DNA from: Candidatus Binatia bacterium
GTDB lineage: Bacteria; Desulfobacterota; Binatia; UBA9968; JAJDTQ01
Assembly (NCBI GenBank): GCA_963666515.2
Contig: OY762897.2
Coordinates: forward strand, 1,888,001 to 1,952,000
Length of the DNA: 64,000 bases
Direction of reading: 5' to 3'
Below are positions 6,539 through 49,695 of the stretch, in pieces; position 1 is the first letter of the stretch, and each line of letters opens with the position of its first letter. The notes below the pieces were generated by a model. The model had not been told where the DNA came from. It saw nothing but the letters and a program-made list of their open reading frames with translations, and ran no database searches. The translations under genes and the position numbers were made by a program.

Positions 6539-6627
6539 CCCCGGCCCGGCGGGCGCTACGGGGACTTTCTCCAAGGCACCGTGTCGTTGGTCTCATTCCG
6601 TAGCACCCGTGTCGGCTTCTCGCTCAC

Positions 6628-7008
6628 ATGCAATATCTTGAAATCGCCCTGATTGTCTTAGTCATCCTCATTGCCTGCGTGGTGGTGAAGATAGGTATTT
6701 CCTTCGACTTGAACAAATTCCTGGAGCATCGTCACCAACGCAAGGAGGAACAGTTCAAAGAAGAGGTCCGAAGGGTGTGTCCCCATATAACGCCGGTTCC
6801 CGTCGGCCAAGAATGCGAGATGAGACCATCAATGATGCCGCGACCCGGAACATCTCTCTGGATTTGCGAAAGATGCGGATGGCAAACGCGGGACGAGGGT
6901 TTGGTGGACCGGCTACTCGAACAAATGAGAAATGATCCCGACGAACTGATCAAGCGTGAATTGAAAATGCGGCAATTGGCGAAGAAGCGTTCTCGCCGTT
7001 TTCTTTGA
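6628..7008 (+). CDS. Membrane-anchored hypothetical protein with Cys motifs (CPH...CERCG)
   Basis: N-terminal hydrophobic helix, AT-richer codons, lies between the repeats. Confidence 0.65.
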   Translation: MQYLEIALIVLVILIACVVVKIGISFDLNKFLEHRHQRKEEQFKEEVRRVCPHITPVPVGQECEMRPSMMPRPGTSLWICERCGWQTRDEGLVDRLLEQMRNDPDELIKRELKMRQLAKKRSRRFL

Positions 7009-7125
7009 TGGGCGTCATTCCACGAAACTCCTGGATCCCAGCTTGTTGCCCTTCCGCGCGCTCATCCGCAAGGCCGATGAACGCTTCGACCGCCACCTTG
7101 CCCGGCTCGCCGATGAAGGAGGATC

Positions 7126-7455
7126 GTGATGACCGTGAGTCTTGACGAGATGATGGCTGCGCTTGACCCCGAAGAGCGGCGCAAGATCGAGGAGCGGGCG
7201 GCAGAGTTGATCGCCGAGGAGATGACGCTACGCGAGCTACGCAAGGCCCGCAAGCTCACCCAGGTCAGCGTCGCACGCGAACTCGGCATCAGCCAGGACG
7301 CCGTCTCACGGCTGGAGCAGCGCAGCGACGTGTTGCTGTCCACGTTGCGCCGAACGGTGGAGGCGATGGGCGGCAGCCTATCGCTCATCGCCCGGTTTCC
7401 CGACCGTCCTCCGGTCGAACTCTCCGGCATCGCCGGACGCGAGACAGGCGATTGA
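7126..7455 (+). CDS. XRE-HTH antitoxin, copy 2 (orphan; preceded only by toxin 3' remnant)
   Basis: Identical to copy 1 from IAEEMTL to the end; N-terminal ~28 aa diverged; AAGGAGG RBS. Confidence 0.88.
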   Translation: MMTVSLDEMMAALDPEERRKIEERAAELIAEEMTLRELRKARKLTQVSVARELGISQDAVSRLEQRSDVLLSTLRRTVEAMGGSLSLIARFPDRPPVELSGIAGRETGD

Positions 7456-7571
7456 CCCCGGCCCGGCGGGCGCTACGGGGACTTTCTCCGAGGCACCTGC
7501 CATGCGCGCGGGTACGTTTGTTTTGCAGACGAATGAGTGCCTATCTGACCTCCAATAATAATGGTCCTGGG

Positions 7572-8276
7572 TCAGAGGAATACCTCGCTGCCTGCCGCCC
7601 ACTGACTGTGCTTCTCCAGAGCTTTCCGATTGGGACGGTCTGCCCTGTTACGCGGCCTGAATATCCTCTTGCCCCGCAGTTCAGCATACTCCGTCCCTCC
7701 AAGCTTTGTATCGACGATGACAGACATTGACTGGGCGTCAATAGAGATATAACCGCGGTCGAAAAGCGTATGAATATCCGCTCGCAGCAATAGGCCGTTT
7801 GCGACCACATTGGTTCGCTTCCCCATATATGGCTCAATGTGCGCGGCTTCCAAAGCCTCGATCGCGGCACATCCGGTAATGGCGCACCGGCCCTCGTAAG
7901 CTCGTATCAACTTGTTACGGAATTCTGGTTGGCCTTGTCGGCGGACTATGGCCGCGATCGTCCGTTGTCGCGCGTCCTCCTGGCTTGTGGGCTCGAAATC
8001 CTGTTGTTCCGAAGACTCCTGAAATGGTATTCCGTTTGTGAATTCATAGTAGCGCCTAAGGGCAGTAGCGCAATTGTCCACTCTCCTAGTTGTCCCTTCC
8101 GTCTCAAGTCGTGACCGGATGTCTTCCACGTCTTCCAGACAGGATACCGTGGACGGTTCGATCGTGATGCCAAGTTTCCTCGACGCGCTGGAAAGATAGC
8201 TGGGGTAATCCTTGGCGGCGGCCTTCCGCCCCGCGCGCTTCAGATAACGGCTGAATTCTTCCTTGTGCTCAACCAT
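7572..8276 (-). CDS. HNH endonuclease
   Basis: RQGQPEFRNKL, CAITGC, LEAAHI, NGLLLRADIHTLFDRG; GGAGG upstream of ATG 8276. Confidence 0.88.
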   Translation of the reverse strand: MVEHKEEFSRYLKRAGRKAAAKDYPSYLSSASRKLGITIEPSTVSCLEDVEDIRSRLETEGTTRRVDNCATALRRYYEFTNGIPFQESSEQQDFEPTSQEDARQRTIAAIVRRQGQPEFRNKLIRAYEGRCAITGCAAIEALEAAHIEPYMGKRTNVVANGLLLRADIHTLFDRGYISIDAQSMSVIVDTKLGGTEYAELRGKRIFRPRNRADRPNRKALEKHSQWAAGSEVFL

Positions 8277-43982: not shown

Positions 43983-44033
43983 TGCCCGGCCTCGTGTAAA
44001 CCCTTCCGGTTGGATGCGTCCTGGAACCGTCGC

Positions 44034-46166
44034 TCAGGAACCGGCGGCGTTGTCCTCCACGAATATCCTGATGTTGCGGAACCCGTCGATCTCGGCCCGG
44101 TCCCGCGGGTTCACCACCACCGTCGTCACGGGCGTCTCGATCACCGCCGGGCCGGACAGCTCCATGCCCGGCGTCATGCGCCGGAAATCGTAGACGGCGG
44201 TGGGAGCGAACTCCCCCAGTTCCTCGAAGAAAACGCTTCGCTCCGTCTTCCGGGCCTGGTCCGCAGTCGCCCCGGCCGCGGGTTCCTCCCGGATGCGGGG
44301 CTTGGCCAGCAAACCCGTCGCGGTGACCCGGAACGTCAGGATCTCCTTGCCCGCCTCCCGGTAGCCCGACCCCTTGCCGTACGCCTTCTCATACGCCTCG
44401 TCGAAGTCCGCGTAAAGCCGTTCCAGGTCCGCCTCCGTGAGCGGCGCCGTGCCCGGAGACAGCGGCACGTTCAACTCGTGGACCTGGTAGCGGTAGCGCA
44501 TGTCCACGCTTCGCGTGATCGCCGTGTCCGCCGGGGCGAATCCGGCAGCGCCCAGGGCGTCCTCCGCCCTCCGGATCAGCTCGGCGAAGTTCTCGTTGAC
44601 GCGGCCGGGGTCCGCCGGCACCTGAATGTGATCGGACTTGCCGTACTCGTGCACCACGTCGGAGCTGATGAGGCCGGTGGCGCCGTGCACCGAGGCGGTG
44701 AGCGGGATCACCACCTGCCGGACTCCCAGGTCCGCGGCATAGCGTCCGGCGTGCATCGGACCGGCGCCGCCGAAGGCGAACAGCACGAACGCCCGCGGGT
44801 CGTGGCCCTTCTCCACCGTGGCCCGGCGGATGAGGTCGCTCATGTGCGCGTTGGAGATGCGGTAGATACCCAGGGCGGCCTCGGACTCGCTCATGCCCAG
44901 GGGCTCCGCGATCCGTTGCCTGACCGCCCGGAGCGCGGCGTCGCGGTCGAGCCGCATCCGCCCGCCCAGGAAATAATCGGGGTTGAGGTAGCCGAGGATG
45001 AGGTCGGCGTCCGAGACCGTGGGCTCGGTTCCGCCGAGGCCGTAGCACACCGGACCGGGGCTCGCGCCCGCGCCCTCCGGCCCCACCTTGAGCAGCCCGG
45101 TCTCCGGTTCGATCCAGGCCATGCTGCCGCCTCCCGCGCCCACGGACTCCACCCAGATCTTGGGCGCCAGCACCCGGTGGCGTAGCACCACCGGCGTGTA
45201 GTCGCGCTCGACGCGCCCGTCCCGGACCACCCCCACCTTGAAGGTGGTGCCGCCCATGTCCGTGGCCAGGATGTTGCGCTCGCCGATCATCTCGCCCAGG
45301 AACCGCGTCCCCGCCACCCCGGAGGCCGGGCCGGACTCGATGGTGCCGACGGCGTTCCGGCAGGTGGCCTCGATGTCGAGCACGCCGCCGTAGGCCTGCA
45401 TGATCATCGGCGGCTTGGCCAACCCCTTGGCCCGCAGCACCTGATCGAGATTCACCAGGTAGCTCGATATCCGCGGGCCGATGTAGGCGTTGAACACCGT
45501 GGTGGCGGTGCGCTCGTACTCGCCCACGAAAGGAGCGGCCGCACTCGAAAGGGTTACGTAGACGCCGGGATGACGGCGCCGCAGGATGGCGGCCACCGCC
45601 TGCTCGTGGGCGTCGTTGGTCACGGACCATAACAGGCACACGGCCACGGACTCGACGCCGCGCGCGGCCAGATCGTCCAGGGCGCCTGCCGCCTGCTCCT
45701 CGTCGAGGGGCACGGTGACCGCGCCCTTGTAGTCCACGCGCTCGTTCACCTCGGCAACCAACGACCGGGGCACGAAGGGCTCGGGCTTCCGCAGCCACGC
45801 CAGCCGGCCCGCCTCCGCCTCGGTGAGTCCGTCCGTGACCTTGCCGCGCATCATGAGCAGGGTATCGGGGAAGCCGCGAGTGGTAACCAAGCCGGTGCGG
45901 GGACCGGAGCGGGTGATCAGGGTGTTCTCGCCGATGGTGCAGGCATGAAAGAAAAGACGGGTGCGCCGGAGCAGTTCTTCCTCGTCGCCGAGACCGATGT
46001 TCCGCGCCGCGTCCCGCACCGCCCCGGCGGCGCCGGCGGAGTAGTCCGGAGGCGTGGAAAGCGACTTGCCCACGACCATCTCGCCCTGGTCGTCGACCAC
46101 GACGCAGTCGGTGAAGGTGCCGCCGATGTCCACGCCGACCAGGTAACGGCCTCGCGAATCACTCAT
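44034..46166 (-). CDS. Hydantoinase A/oxoprolinase
   Basis: VGVDIGGTFTD, SGPASG, DMGGTTF, GAGGGS, PGPVCYG. Confidence 0.94.
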   Translation of the reverse strand: MSDSRGRYLVGVDIGGTFTDCVVVDDQGEMVVGKSLSTPPDYSAGAAGAVRDAARNIGLGDEEELLRRTRLFFHACTIGENTLITRSGPRTGLVTTRGFPDTLLMMRGKVTDGLTEAEAGRLAWLRKPEPFVPRSLVAEVNERVDYKGAVTVPLDEEQAAGALDDLAARGVESVAVCLLWSVTNDAHEQAVAAILRRRHPGVYVTLSSAAAPFVGEYERTATTVFNAYIGPRISSYLVNLDQVLRAKGLAKPPMIMQAYGGVLDIEATCRNAVGTIESGPASGVAGTRFLGEMIGERNILATDMGGTTFKVGVVRDGRVERDYTPVVLRHRVLAPKIWVESVGAGGGSMAWIEPETGLLKVGPEGAGASPGPVCYGLGGTEPTVSDADLILGYLNPDYFLGGRMRLDRDAALRAVRQRIAEPLGMSESEAALGIYRISNAHMSDLIRRATVEKGHDPRAFVLFAFGGAGPMHAGRYAADLGVRQVVIPLTASVHGATGLISSDVVHEYGKSDHIQVPADPGRVNENFAELIRRAEDALGAAGFAPADTAITRSVDMRYRYQVHELNVPLSPGTAPLTEADLERLYADFDEAYEKAYGKGSGYREAGKEILTFRVTATGLLAKPRIREEPAAGATADQARKTERSVFFEELGEFAPTAVYDFRRMTPGMELSGPAVIETPVTTVVVNPRDRAEIDGFRNIRIFVEDNAAGS

Positions 46167-46184
46167 AACCATCTGATCTTTCAG

Positions 46185-46213
46185 TTGACACGTGGTGGCG
46201 GCAATAGTAGATT
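46185..46213 (+). promoter_or_regulatory. Near-consensus sigma70 promoter
   Basis: TTGACA (46185-46190)-17 bp-TAGATT (46208-46213). Confidence 0.75.
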
Positions 46214-46219
46214 TCACCC

Positions 46220-46277
46220 ACTAACTTGCTAACCCCCCCCGGGATCGAGCCGGAAACGGCCCCCGGGGGTTTTTTTT
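46220..46277 (+). ncRNA. Putative structured leader/small RNA ending in an intrinsic-terminator-like hairpin and U8
   Basis: cccccggg (46236-43) pairs with cccggggg (46262-69), enclosing gccg-GAAA-cggc; T8 at 46270-77; ATG follows at 46287. Confidence 0.55.
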
Positions 46278-46286
46278 GAGTTTCCT

Positions 46287-46913
46287 ATGGCACTGGAGCG
46301 CGCAGTCCTCTTCATCGACGGAAGCAACTTCTACCATGCCGCCAGGCACATCGGAATCTCCACCGGAGATGTTGACTATCAGAAATTGGCCAACAACCTG
46401 ATTTTGAACCGGGAACTGGCCGGTATCCGATACTATGTGGGGCAGGTTTCCGGTGATCTCTCCCGCCGTTCGTCTCAACAAAAGTTTCTGAGCAGGATAC
46501 AGGGCCAGGGTGTGACGGTTGTCAAGGGCCGAATCGAGCGCAAAATGGTCCGCCCGGAAGACAATCCTTTGATTGGAAAGCTGAAGGACGTGGTCGCCGC
46601 CCACAAAGCGGACCTCGGCGGTCCGATTCTCCTCGAACTTGAAGCCTTGTGCAAAATGTCACTCCCTCAGTACACCGAGAAGAGAGTCGATGTTTCCATC
46701 GCAGTGGACATGGTGACAATGGCGTACGGCGGGCAATATGATGTCGCGTATCTTCTCTCGGCGGACGGAGATTTCGTCCCGGCAGTCGAGGCCGTCAAGA
46801 AGTCGGGCAAAAAGGTGTTCGCCGCCTCGCCCAGCTCTGGTTACGAGCTTACGAGAGTCGTCGATAAGTTCATCCGCCTGAGGAAGGACTGGTTTTTGGG
46901 CTTGTCCGCATAG
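46287..46913 (+). CDS. NYN (LabA/DUF88, PIN-fold) ribonuclease
   Basis: LFIDGSNFY, EKRVDVSIAVDM, LLSADGDFVPAV; acidic catalytic residues intact. Confidence 0.92.
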   Translation: MALERAVLFIDGSNFYHAARHIGISTGDVDYQKLANNLILNRELAGIRYYVGQVSGDLSRRSSQQKFLSRIQGQGVTVVKGRIERKMVRPEDNPLIGKLKDVVAAHKADLGGPILLELEALCKMSLPQYTEKRVDVSIAVDMVTMAYGGQYDVAYLLSADGDFVPAVEAVKKSGKKVFAASPSSGYELTRVVDKFIRLRKDWFLGLSA

Positions 46914-47304
46914 ACAGCCTCATCGTTTGGCACACAGGGTGGCCGGCTAGGTAGTGGCCACAACCGGAAGTTTTCACCCGACATCGCCGACTCCTGGAAG
47001 GGATCGGCTATGTACCGCCGGCAGAAATCGAAGACTTGTACTATCAGCAGTGCAAGGAGTCACCCATGGTGGCCTGACTCACCAAAATCCGTCTCCGGTA
47101 AACCCGGGACGGTTCAGTCGAAGTATCCACACAGGAACAGGATGTAGCGCCCCCGCTCCTGTCCCTATGCCCACGCGAGGGTCAAGGACAAACGGCGTTT
47201 TCCGGTTGACAATGTTCCCGCACTTTCATTAGGTTCAGCACCTATCCGGCTTCGGCCGAGGCATCAACCGGTCGGGGAATGCCCCGGCAAAGGAGGGTAC
47301 ACGG

Positions 47305-48300
47305 ATGAAGAAAATCATGCTTGGGGCGTTCGCTGCGGCGTTTGCCCTGTTTGTTGTGGCCGCATCCGCGCAGGCGGCGGTCACGATAAAGGTCAGCACC
47401 TGCCTGGCCAAGACCCACGACCAGGTGGAGACGTACTTCCAGGCGTTCCACGACAAGTTCAACGAAGTCGCCAAGGGCGAGGCCAAGCTCCACTACGTGG
47501 GCGGCCCGGAAGTGTCGCCGCGGCAGAAGCAGGGTCCGGCGCTCAAGCGGGGCTTGGTGGACATGATCTTCTGCCCCATGGGCTATTACGAGGGAATGGT
47601 GGCGGAAGCCGGCCTGACCTCGGTGACCAACCTGTCCACCAAGGAGCTCCGGGACAACGGCGCCATCGACCAGCTCCAGCCGGTGTGGGCGAAGAAGTTC
47701 AACGGACGGATCCTGGGCTGGTGCTGCTACGGCGTCGACTTCCACATCTATACGACGTTCAAGCCCAAGGAGAGCACCAAGACCGGCCTCGACCTGTCGG
47801 GGCGCAAGATGCGCTCCACCGCCACGTACAGAGTGTTCTTCAGCGTCATGAACGCCATTCCCGTCACCATGGCTCCCGCGGAGATGTACACCGGTCTGCA
47901 GCGGGGCGTGGTGCAGGGGCTCGCATGGCCCGAAGGAGCGCTGGCCAAGTACGGCGTCCAGAAGTTCCTCAAGTACCGCGTTTACCCGGGCTTCTATCGC
48001 AGCGGCTCCATGGTCGTGATCAACCTGGACAAGTGGAAATCCCTGCCCAAGTCCGTGCAGGACAAGCTCACCCAGACAGGTCTCGCGTTCGAGCAGGGCA
48101 GCGAGCCGATACTCCGCGCGAAGGCCGACGCCGACAACAAGAAGCTGTGGGCTTCGGGCCTTCAGAAGTACGAACTCAAGGGCGAGGCGCGGAAGGCCTA
48201 TCTGCGCACCGTCTACGAGCTCGCATGGGAGGCCCGGTCGAAGAACAACTTCACGGTGCCGTTCGCGAAGCTGAAGGAGAAGATGTACCGCGCGCCGTGA
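47305..48300 (+). CDS. dctP: TRAP transporter solute-binding subunit
   Basis: Signal peptide, GGPEV, DLSGRKMR, EMYTGLQRGVVQG, NLDKWKSLP; candidate promoter TTGACA at 47206. Confidence 0.9.
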   Translation: MKKIMLGAFAAAFALFVVAASAQAAVTIKVSTCLAKTHDQVETYFQAFHDKFNEVAKGEAKLHYVGGPEVSPRQKQGPALKRGLVDMIFCPMGYYEGMVAEAGLTSVTNLSTKELRDNGAIDQLQPVWAKKFNGRILGWCCYGVDFHIYTTFKPKESTKTGLDLSGRKMRSTATYRVFFSVMNAIPVTMAPAEMYTGLQRGVVQGLAWPEGALAKYGVQKFLKYRVYPGFYRSGSMVVINLDKWKSLPKSVQDKLTQTGLAFEQGSEPILRAKADADNKKLWASGLQKYELKGEARKAYLRTVYELAWEARSKNNFTVPFAKLKEKMYRAP

Positions 48301-48318
48301 GGGCCGCGTCAAAACAGT

Positions 48319-48360
48319 GAAAACGCCCCCGATCCGGAGTGCTGGATCGGGGGCGTTTTC
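48319..48360. terminator. Bidirectional intrinsic terminator
   Basis: gaaaacgcccccgatcc / ggatcgggggcgttttc 17-bp stem between convergent genes. Confidence 0.88.
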
Positions 48361-48384
48361 TTTCCAGGGGCCGGAACGCAGTCT

Positions 48385-49695
48385 TCAATCCATCAGATTG
48401 GGAAGCCACAGCGCCAGCCCGGGTTCCCAGATCAGGATGAGGATCAGGATCAGGTCGCAGATCAGGAACGGGATCGCCGCGTTGGCCACCTGCAGCAGCG
48501 TGGTGCCCCGTGGCGCCACTCCGAGCATCACGTAGAGCAACAATCCGAAGGGGGGCGTCGTGCCCGCCATCTCCAGCGTCATCAGCACGAACAGCCCGAA
48601 CCAGATCAGGTCGAAGCCCAGGGCCTCGGCCAGGGGGAAGAAGATGGGCACGGTGATGAGCATCATGGAGGTGGCGTCCATGAACATGCCCAGCACGATG
48701 AGGATCAGGAACATGACCGCGAGCACCACCAGGCGGGACACCTCGAAGCTGGTGGCCCATTCCAGCATGCCGGCGGTGGCGCCCGAGTAGGCCAGGAGCT
48801 GACTGAACACGGTCGAGTTCATGATGATGAGGAACACCATGCCGGCCACCCGCACAGTGCCCGACAGGGAGGTGCGGATGGCCTCCCACTTGAGCACGCG
48901 GAAGGCCACTGCCAGGATGGCCACGCCCAACACACCGCAGGCCGCGGACTCCGTGGGTGTGGCGATGCCCAGGATGATGAAGCCGATGACCATGAAGATC
49001 ACGAGGCTCACCGGCAGGATGTTGAAGGTGATGTACTTGATCTTGTGCGCCCAACTGGTGGGCGGCACGTCATAGGCCGGCGCCCCCGCGGGGTTGATGA
49101 TGATCTGCAGGTACAACATGCCGGCGTAAAGCATGGCCAGCACGAAACCCGGCAGGAACCCCGCGATCAGGAGACGGCCCACGTCGATGTTGGCGACGCT
49201 CGCCAGCAGCACGGCCAGCGCCGAGGGCGGGATGATCATGGCCAGGCCGCCGGTGCCCAGGATAGGCCCCATGGACATGCGCCAGTTGTAGCCCCGCCGC
49301 TGCATCTCCGGCACCAGCAACGATCCCAGCATGGCGGTATTGGCCATGGAGGAGCCGGTAAGAGTCGAGAAGATCGTCCCGCCGGCTACCGTCAGGTAGC
49401 AGAGCCGGCCCCGCAGCTTGCCGAACAGCGAATCGAGCCCATCGAAAACGCGTATGGCCAGGCCCGTGTGAAAGAACAGCGCGCCCATGAGGATGAACAT
49501 GGGCACGGGACCCAGGGTGAACCGGGTGATCAGCACGGTGGAATTGTCCGCCACCTGGATGAAGCCGTGCACGCCGGCAAAGATGAAGATGCCGATGAAG
49601 TTCGTGGTGATGAAGGCGAAGGCCACGGGGACCCCGATGGCCATCAGACAGACGACCATGCCCACCAGGAGAGCGAATGCCCAATACCATTCCAT
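48385..49695 (-). CDS. dctM: TRAP large permease
   Basis: GVPVAFA, PMFILMG, GSSMA, IIPPS, TPTESA, TPPFG. Confidence 0.93.
   Translation of the reverse strand: MEWYWAFALLVGMVVCLMAIGVPVAFAFITTNFIGIFIFAGVHGFIQVADNSTVLITRFTLGPVPMFILMGALFFHTGLAIRVFDGLDSLFGKLRGRLCYLTVAGGTIFSTLTGSSMANTAMLGSLLVPEMQRRGYNWRMSMGPILGTGGLAMIIPPSALAVLLASVANIDVGRLLIAGFLPGFVLAMLYAGMLYLQIIINPAGAPAYDVPPTSWAHKIKYITFNILPVSLVIFMVIGFIILGIATPTESAACGVLGVAILAVAFRVLKWEAIRTSLSGTVRVAGMVFLIIMNSTVFSQLLAYSGATAGMLEWATSFEVSRLVVLAVMFLILIVLGMFMDATSMMLITVPIFFPLAEALGFDLIWFGLFVLMTLEMAGTTPPFGLLLYVMLGVAPRGTTLLQVANAAIPFLICDLILILILIWEPGLALWLPNLMD

Follow-up and report, generated by a model that had tools for sequence, protein, structure and literature searches.

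A 64,000-nucleotide (nt) stretch of contig OY762897.2 from a Candidatus Binatia bacterium (referred to below, at its full length, as the window; positions are counted from its first letter) carries a compact cassette in which a sigma-70-type promoter, a predicted small RNA ending in an intrinsic terminator, and a gene for a LabA-like NYN nuclease follow one another on the plus strand. The neighboring genes encode hydantoinase A (upstream and divergent) and DctP, a TRAP solute-binding protein (downstream, with its start 390 nt past the NYN stop codon). Sequence comparisons establish the anatomy of the cassette, its boundaries, its conservation, the covariation within its RNA, and the existence of extra RNA copies in related genomes. 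The features of the cassette are as follows.

46185..46213, plus strand: sigma-70-type promoter (TTGACA at 46185-46190, 17-nt spacer, TAGATT at 46208-46213), with the transcription start predicted near 46220
46220..46277, plus strand: predicted small RNA or leader of ~58 nt, comprising a 5' single-stranded part, the terminator hairpin, and U8
46229..46233, plus strand: unpaired CUAAC (family consensus YUNAY), directly 5' of the C-run and conserved in alignments A2, A4, and A6
46236..46269, plus strand: hairpin with an 8-bp C/G outer stem (46236-46243 paired with 46262-46269)
46244-46248 opposite C46261, plus strand: asymmetric internal loop of the hairpin (AUCGA versus C)
46249-46252 paired with 46257-46260, plus strand: inner stem of the hairpin (GCCG/CGGC), from the predicted fold
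46253-46256, plus strand: GAAA loop of the hairpin, from the predicted fold
46270..46277, plus strand: U8 tract directly 3' of the stem, the predicted tail of an intrinsic terminator
46287..46913, plus strand: NYN (LabA-like, PF01936) nuclease gene, 208 amino acids (Pfam NYN, E = 1.1e-23)

The promoter matches the consensus at 10 of 12 positions in a promoter scan, and promoter-like sites at 44000-49000 numbered 3, versus 0.7 ± 0.8 in shuffled sequences. The hairpin alone has a folding energy of -24.8 kcal/mol. Together with the adjacent U8 on the transcribed strand, this stable GC-rich hairpin constitutes a predicted intrinsic terminator, of which the terminator scan recognized only a 5-bp sub-hairpin. 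The NYN ATG at 46287 lies 9 nt past the U-tract; it is the first possible start in frame and is preceded by no clear Shine-Dalgarno sequence. A first-pass annotation of the window had proposed a promoter, a 58-nt leader with a hairpin and U8, and an intact NYN open reading frame (ORF), and all of these lie where it placed them.

Two other functions of the leader were considered. A riboswitch or other ligand-sensing attenuator is not indicated, with the stem of the window RNA only ~16 nt past the predicted start and at most one simple tetraloop hairpin added ahead of the terminator hairpin in relatives. Antisense (type I-like) pairing with the NYN mRNA was rejected because complementarity between the small RNA and that mRNA was no better than in shuffles (74 of 200 were as good).

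The encoded protein belongs to the NYN/LabA-like family (PF01936) by its Pfam score (84.8 bits versus a gathering cutoff of 24.2), its fold, and its conserved acidic residues; NYN is its sole Pfam domain. A word-indexed search yielded 271 homologs at E <= 1e-3 among 604 candidates. In a 32-member alignment, E131, D135, D141, D160, and D162 are invariant and D11 nearly so (at least 90%), which bears out the earlier view that the acidic residues are intact. The AlphaFold2 model (pLDDT 89.8, pTM 0.75) is most similar to the LabA-like structure 2qip (Foldseek E = 3e-9; TM score of 0.75 on the target), followed by the MARF1 NYN domains 5yaa and 6fdl. The window protein is ~45 residues longer than these three chains and carries an insertion absent from 2qip. 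PADLOC profiles for HEC-09 (4.6e-23, a partial match) and "NYN, LabA-like" (1.6e-11) were matched, and among NCBIfam models only TIGR00288, below threshold. A profile search of 1.84 billion representatives gave 8,760 matches at E <= 1e-3 and only 86 at E <= 1e-30, indicating that this NYN subfamily is small and distinct. No relative of the protein was found in phage genomes. RNase chemistry is supported for the NYN fold by a CRISPR-associated NYN protein, described in the portion of the source covered here as a sequence-nonspecific, Mn-dependent, single-strand-specific RNase.

Conservation and covariation of the RNA upstream of NYN genes

A scan of genome contigs with the protein alignment confirmed 124 relatives. 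The best 80 were fetched (L001 to L080), giving 81 cassettes with that of the window. Judging by record names, these loci span more than 10 phyla, including Thermodesulfobacteriota, Binatia, Gammaproteobacteria, Nitrospirales, Dehalococcoidia, Myxococcota, Acidobacteriota, Gemmatimonadota, Planctomycetota, Eisenbacteria, Fermentibacteria-type lineages, and others. Many of the genomes bear names that point to sponge-associated lineages (Poriferihabitaceae, Spongiihabitans, Binatia, Nitrospirales, Marinacidobacterium, and Azotimanducaceae).

The window's hairpin recurred when the 130 nt upstream of each NYN gene were read. With two covariance models (R1 and R2) and inspection by eye, this hairpin and a U-tract were found ahead of the NYN homolog, on the same strand, in 80 of 80 fetched loci. 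A conserved upstream structure among homologs was the check that the first-pass annotation had set for its own proposal, and the hairpin and U-tract, with covariation, are present upstream of every homolog fetched. Because of this conservation at all 80 related loci, the feature in the window is not a product of chance.

The hairpin occurs as two sequence variants. Variant A (L001 to L037, L053, and the window) consists, in order, of YUAAC, a C-run, GGG, a 4- to 5-nt 5' internal loop, a variable inner hairpin, one nucleotide, CCCGGGGG, and the U-tract. Variant B, found in the other 42 loci, is composed, in order, of a 5' hairpin with a tetraloop (P1), UUNAU, CCCCCGG(G/U)G-UCU, a variable hairpin, ACA-CGCCGGGG, and the U-tract. 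A strict text pattern for the hairpin recovered only 34 of the 80 loci; variant B escaped it and was recognized later, by eye and with R2.

Model R1, seeded from ten variant-A copies, gave 100 matches at E <= 1 in 822,503 nt. At this threshold, 71 of the 81 sources had a plus-strand match that preceded the NYN match by no more than 400 nt. Nine of the ten sources without one carry variant B (by eye and by pattern), and the tenth, L030, has its R1 match 725 nt upstream. Model R2 was built from 35 of 40 extracted variant-B regions (five near-duplicates were dropped) with a structure from RNAalifold, and it matches all 42 variant-B loci at E <= 3.7e-7. At E <= 0.01, 59 of its 59 matches in 834,928 nt (both strands) lie on the NYN strand, and 58 are directly upstream of an NYN gene, the exception being L068:1866-1945. 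In the window, R1 scores 60.8 bits (E = 1.2e-12) at 46229-46277, and R2 matches at 46180-46277 (E = 0.0076).

In 37 of 71 loci, a promoter-like site lay within the 115 nt preceding the motif, compared with 41 of 1,620 random windows. Distances from the -10 box to the motif fall into two classes, 6 to 16 nt and 22 to 39 nt, the longer of which bears the P1 hairpin; in many relatives, an extra 5' hairpin extends the predicted RNA to 80 to 90 nt. Of 88 motif instances, 83 have at least five T residues among the 8 nt that follow the stem, and the U-tract ends 4 to 60 nt before the NYN start in most loci. The YUNAY element is conserved independently of its distance to the promoter (alignments A2, A4, and A6) and may be a cleavage or recognition site. 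Its UAA was considered as the stop codon of a leader peptide and was rejected as such, since the variants CUUAC, UUCAU, UUUAU, and UUACC lack a stop. Between L003 and L005, the 41-nt core of the RNA is identical and the cassette DNA is 71 to 73% identical, which indicates that the RNA is constrained more strongly in sequence than the NYN gene is.

Support for the structure was obtained separately for the two variants. In variant A (48 best R1 matches, 45 distinct sequences), 97.0% of cells pair, compared with 34 to 65% when the 3' partner was slid by 1 to 3 columns. Both sides change in 7 of 13 pairs (22 cells), and 0 of 500 shuffles reached the observed values, although such counts are not probabilities, given that the sequences compared are related and were aligned (A5) by fitting to the model. 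In variant B, RNAalifold applied to a plain MAFFT alignment gives P1 and a second hairpin, P2, and 10 of 16 pairs show compensatory changes, evidence that is independent of any model. Since G-U pairs occur and R1 scores are far weaker on the minus strand (16 to 19 bits versus 50 to 76), the structure is strand specific and hence one of RNA. The helix has clade-specific internal loops and conserved mismatches.

The RNA family is absent from Rfam 15. At 45500-47600 of the window, no family reached its threshold, and the best match was NsiR1 (22.6 bits versus a cutoff of 39; E = 0.14). In 14 loci searched whole, Rfam gave a single match, to a tRNA elsewhere, and the upstream region of L046 gave nothing below E = 0.4. 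Identities as NsiR1 or Thr_leader were rejected because these weak matches rest on terminators. The Rfam scan that the first-pass annotation had suggested thus returned no known family.

Unit boundaries and extra RNA copies

When the 10 kb around the window gene were compared with all loci by blastn, L001, L002, and L015 were closest (84 to 85% identity). Their similarity to the window starts with the first base of the -35 box (46185) and stops at 46908-46953. The GC content of the cassette is 0.53 to 0.57, versus 0.67 to 0.72 in the upstream flank. Clustering of 2,589 flanking ORFs from the 81 cassettes revealed no conserved protein partner, in line with the earlier claim that no protein antitoxin is adjacent: the top neighbor family occurred in at most 6 of 81 cassettes and is an artifact, an antisense ORF overlapping NYN. 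Because similarity spans the -35 box to the NYN stop and no neighbor is conserved, the mobile conserved unit consists of the promoter, the RNA, and the NYN gene. Its size is about 730 bp, and its limits agree with those drawn in the first-pass annotation.

Outside this unit, a non-coding region of ~390 nt (46914-47304; GC, 0.57 to 0.59) separates the NYN stop from the DctP gene, and none of the fetched loci shows conservation of the window sequence past 46953. Inspection by eye revealed a TTGACA element at about 47206, before the start of DctP. Just past the DctP stop, at 48319-48360 on the minus strand, lies a 17-bp GC-rich hairpin (11 G-C pairs) that is terminator-like on that strand.

Arrays of the RNA are present in some relatives only (L043, L026, L031, L036, and L023). 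In L026 (4291-4816), five RNA units recur with a 118-nt period, and NYN follows 184 nt past the last unit. In L043 (4667-4968), there are 4.1 tandem units of 74 nt (99% matches) behind one promoter; the unit spacers measure 16 nt, and the last unit is degenerate, with a weakened 3' arm. All copies in L023 (3 of 3) and L035 (2 of 2) have a promoter-like site 6 to 7 nt ahead of the motif.

Copies also occur away from the usual position. An RNA copy lies downstream of NYN in L032, L035, and L053, such that in L035 the copies flank NYN on both sides. An orphan variant-B copy with no NYN gene after it was detected in L068 (1866-1945; R2, E = 2.4e-14), between two AbiEi-family genes and 3 kb from that locus's own NYN cassette. 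Seven genomes carry two cassettes each, and four of the seven pair variant A with variant B. About 0.7 kb downstream of the second RNA copy in L032, a Mutator-family transposase gene (6599-7861; Pfam, 1.2e-62) fits a mobile context.

Proposed action of the module and alternative explanations

The reading that we favor, with confidence evenly balanced between acceptance and doubt, is that the cassette is a horizontally moving, two-part module in which an NYN RNase is gated by a terminator and partnered by an RNA, with an action like that of type III toxin-antitoxin systems. A constitutive-looking sigma-70 promoter would start transcription near 46220, and the transcript would fold into the very stable, irregular GC hairpin followed by U8, so that most transcripts would end as an RNA of ~50 to 58 nt. 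The nuclease would be made only from the minority of transcripts that read through, and the RNA would be in large excess. Dependence of NYN on read-through is suggested by its start lying so close behind a strong terminator that there is no room for a promoter of its own, and given this dependence the terminated RNA would be the major product.

The RNA would then be a specific partner of NYN, serving as an inhibitor (antitoxin), a preferred substrate, or a regulator, as in type III systems. Its conservation beyond that of the protein, its clade-specific loops and mismatches, and its extra copies all point to such a partnership. The irregular conserved helix and YUNAY would form a protein-recognition surface, most simply for NYN itself. 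Loss of the RNA supply or forced read-through of the terminator would free or induce the nuclease, which may be toxic and may have a role in phage defense.

A wider reading, which we offer tentatively and consider somewhat improbable, is that these cassettes belong to a family of RNA-protein toxin-antitoxin or abortive-infection systems that has been transferred widely and has not been described. The terminator-embedded RNA would act both as a gate and as an antitoxin or processed substrate, the variants would be matched to NYN clades, and two cassettes could thereby coexist in one genome. A like arrangement, with unrelated RNAs, might extend to distant solo NYN genes, including the HEC-09 candidates of small enterobacterial plasmids. 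On this reading, the LabA-like NYN proteins would supply a second major toxin fold for RNA-antitoxin systems.

Several observations speak against an RNA-partnered toxin. The window RNA is single copy (one R1 match in 64 kb), no tandem repeats were found at 45900-47400, and the fold of the 81-nt stretch is modest (z = -1.89; 5 of 200 shuffles were equally good). The genes next to the window cassette are metabolic, not defense, genes. The outer stem of variant A is nearly invariant (3 of 8 pairs never vary), and RNAalifold applied to the MAFFT alignment A2 returned this invariant stem only (7 pairs, 0 compensatory changes); A2 was replaced by the model-based A5 because MAFFT had shifted the inner stem by one column between length classes. 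Promoters of the extra copies in L026, L031, L032, and L053 were recognized only by eye and did not satisfy the scan criteria, which also called none of the TTGACA elements ahead of each L026 unit. Lacking promoters of their own, the L043 units could stack terminators that silence NYN purely in cis. The shuffle test of complementarity removes an antisense mechanism and lends nothing to a binding one. HEC-09, the closest named candidate and an NYN protein discussed below, gave no protection against any phage tested in the one published screen, as far as the portion of that report covered here goes (bioRxiv 10.1101/2024.01.29.577857), and the match of the window protein to the HEC-09 profile is split into two stretches, the best covering positions 94 to 169 of 203.

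A serious rival, though we regard it as unlikely, is a purely cis-acting leader: a terminator attenuator, perhaps with NYN binding or cleaving its own 5' leader, that keeps the RNase at a very low level and has neither a function in trans nor a toxin-antitoxin relation. RNases such as RNase E and Regnase-1 are autoregulated via hairpins of their own mRNAs. The great stability of the hairpin and the short distance from the U-tract to the NYN start, which makes read-through a requirement in most loci, fit this explanation, as do the four L043 units served by one promoter, with spacers too short for further promoters and a weakened last 3' arm. However, the L023 and L035 copies have promoter-like sites of their own (the L026 elements count here by eye only), copies lie downstream of NYN in three loci, and one is an orphan. 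A terminator alone also leaves YUNAY, the clade-specific loops, the conserved mismatches, and P1 unexplained. Because extra copies exist, some with their own promoter and one without any NYN gene, a small RNA gene is favored over a purely cis-acting leader, and with it the discrete small RNA that had originally been proposed.

We consider it improbable that the RNA is a base-pairing regulatory small RNA, with its C-rich or YUNAY region pairing with other mRNAs and NYN being a cotransferred helper or passenger. The layout is classical for such RNAs (a promoter of its own, an optional hairpin at the 5' end, then a single-stranded stretch and a Rho-independent terminator), multiple and orphan copies exist, and there is the weak Rfam resemblance to the tandemly repeated small RNA NsiR1. 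Yet nearly all R2 matches (58 of 59) directly precede NYN across many phyla that share no other gene there, and a target on the chromosome would not be expected to move along with the cassette. Moreover, the conserved C-run is mostly buried in the stem, and there is no special complementarity to the NYN mRNA.

Far less probable still is a DNA-level element, that is, a GC palindrome at which recombination or insertion occurs, or which serves as an operator or as a repeat of a mobile cassette, rather than a functional RNA. The outer arms, with their CCCGGG palindromes, are almost invariant, the cassette is mobile and low in GC, and the two L035 copies flank NYN. Against this, the orientation relative to NYN is fixed (all R2 matches are on the plus strand), the T-tract is one-sided, G-U pairs read on the opposite strand would become A-C mismatches, the inner stem shows covariation despite differing in length and sequence, and a promoter lies directly upstream.

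A chance juxtaposition of a fortuitous promoter match and the terminator of an unrelated transcript has virtually no probability left: simple consensus scans do give some random matches and the single-sequence z score is modest, but the arrangement is repeated in all 81 cassettes examined, and these comparative data refute it. The upstream gene is divergent, and there is thus no transcript for the hairpin to end; this disposes of the hairpin as the terminator of that gene, a possibility that the first-pass annotation had named as fatal to its proposal.

Comparison with known systems

Four plasmid loci (L081 to L084) with distant NYN genes (26 to 30% identity) were compared with the window cassette. 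The E. coli plasmid pHFQ5 (L081, NZ_AP023432.1) and a Klebsiella plasmid (L082, NZ_CP113195.1) encode full-length HEC-09-type NYN proteins, and the E. coli protein matches the HEC-09 profile at positions 2 to 203 (5.1e-49). The region ahead of these genes is as follows.

L081 1290-1485 and L082 310-640: structured region upstream of the HEC-09-type NYN gene, with a terminator (fold z = -5.4)

The z score refers to the 196 nt upstream of the gene; the distance from the terminator to the ATG is ~17 nt, the upstream gene is divergent, and RNAI of the replicon is located elsewhere (L081 2257-2356). On the Carboxydocella plasmid CP028515.1 (L083 1280-1510), TTGACA-17-TATAAT is followed by ~130 nt with several hairpins, then by a terminator, a Shine-Dalgarno sequence, and a LabA/DUF88 gene with a GTG start. 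The order of elements at these three loci (L081 to L083) is that of the window cassette, but their RNAs are unrelated to it. The Thiothrix plasmid NZ_CP072795.1 (L084 1139-2154) has, instead of an RNA leader, an overlapping ORF of 120 amino acids with a helix-turn-helix domain (HTH_5, 9.8e-5) before NYN, which may encode a protein partner or regulator in that branch. Neither R1 nor R2 matched the plasmid NYN leaders, which are analogous and not homologous to the window RNA.

NsiR1 genes are tandemly repeated. Like the window RNA, NsiR1 (RF02399) is short and combines a small 5' hairpin, a linker, and a C/G-rich terminator; the window RNA is not a member of this family, its match being below the gathering cutoff and resting on the terminator.

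HEC-09 is described as an NYN protein with MARF1-like aspartates and is a PADLOC candidate (Payne et al., bioRxiv 10.1101/2024.01.29.577857). Both it and the window protein are single-gene NYN proteins, HEC-09 being a candidate for defense, and the profile match links the two. The window gene, with hydantoinase A and DctP genes as neighbors, is not embedded in Hma or any other defense system. We conclude from the profile comparison that the window protein is a relative, but not a clear member, of HEC-09. In the parts of that report covered here, no RNA is mentioned with HEC-09, and the screen candidates were cloned with their putative native promoter region (bioRxiv 10.1101/2024.01.29.577857). 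If the gene is tightly terminated and buffered by an RNA, cloning with the native promoter may be why HEC-09 stayed silent in the screen.

There are thousands of bacterial LabA-like NYN proteins. In the portion covered here of the 2017 classification of the PIN superfamily, the function of this group (NYN.COG1432) is listed as unknown and no associated RNA is mentioned (Matelska et al. 2017, PMC5499597). The window protein shares the domain family, the fold, and the conserved acidic active-site residues of this group; it differs in belonging to a small subfamily that is defined here by its upstream RNA. Literature searches gave no description of an NYN-associated RNA, and the main texts of the large structured-RNA surveys listed (supplements not covered) contain no instance of "NYN." A conserved, covarying RNA across more than 10 phyla gives one NYN subfamily a concrete, testable partner, and it adds a family that Rfam 15 lacks.

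In AbiF/RCd22, a toxic RNase-type protein is restrained in both expression and activity by a conserved structured RNA encoded just upstream, which acts in cis and in trans through direct RNA-protein contact, according to the part of the report covered here (bioRxiv 10.1101/2025.04.15.648962). The position of the RNA immediately upstream of an RNase-type gene is common to both systems, AbiF having experimental support and the window module being known from sequence. The AbiF protein is of the Abi_2/HEPN type, in contrast to NYN, and its RNA, with two "abiF motifs," is unrelated to the window hairpin. Pfam detected no Abi_2 domain in the window protein, and no Rfam family reached threshold upstream of its gene.

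The cassette also resembles type III systems (ToxIN, CptIN, and TenpIN). The order of promoter, non-coding RNA, Rho-independent terminator, and endoribonuclease gene is the same in all 81 cassettes, the module is mobile and has no protein antitoxin, and an excess of RNA over nuclease would be expected from the terminator. Some relatives also have tandem RNA arrays, as in type III systems (74 nt x 4.1 in L043 and 118 nt x 5 in L026). The antitoxin RNA of ToxIN-type systems is an array of 36- to 45-nt repeats ahead of a separate terminator. In the window and most loci, by contrast, a single hairpin unit is itself the terminator, and the window nuclease has the NYN fold (PIN-like, metal dependent), not the ToxN/AbiQ-type fold. 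The first-pass description of the cassette as type III-like therefore stands for its layout of promoter, RNA, terminator, and solo NYN gene and fails for the ToxN-type toxin and the tandem short repeats, neither of which the window has; for this reason, we use the term for a possible mode of action and not for a family.

The window module is thus a member of neither the type III toxin-antitoxin systems nor AbiF/RCd22. If its RNA neutralizes the nuclease, RNA-antitoxin systems would reach beyond the ToxN and AbiF folds to PIN-like/NYN proteins. Set beside these known systems, the combination of an NYN nuclease with a terminator-embedded RNA in what appears to be an RNA-partnered RNase module is new.

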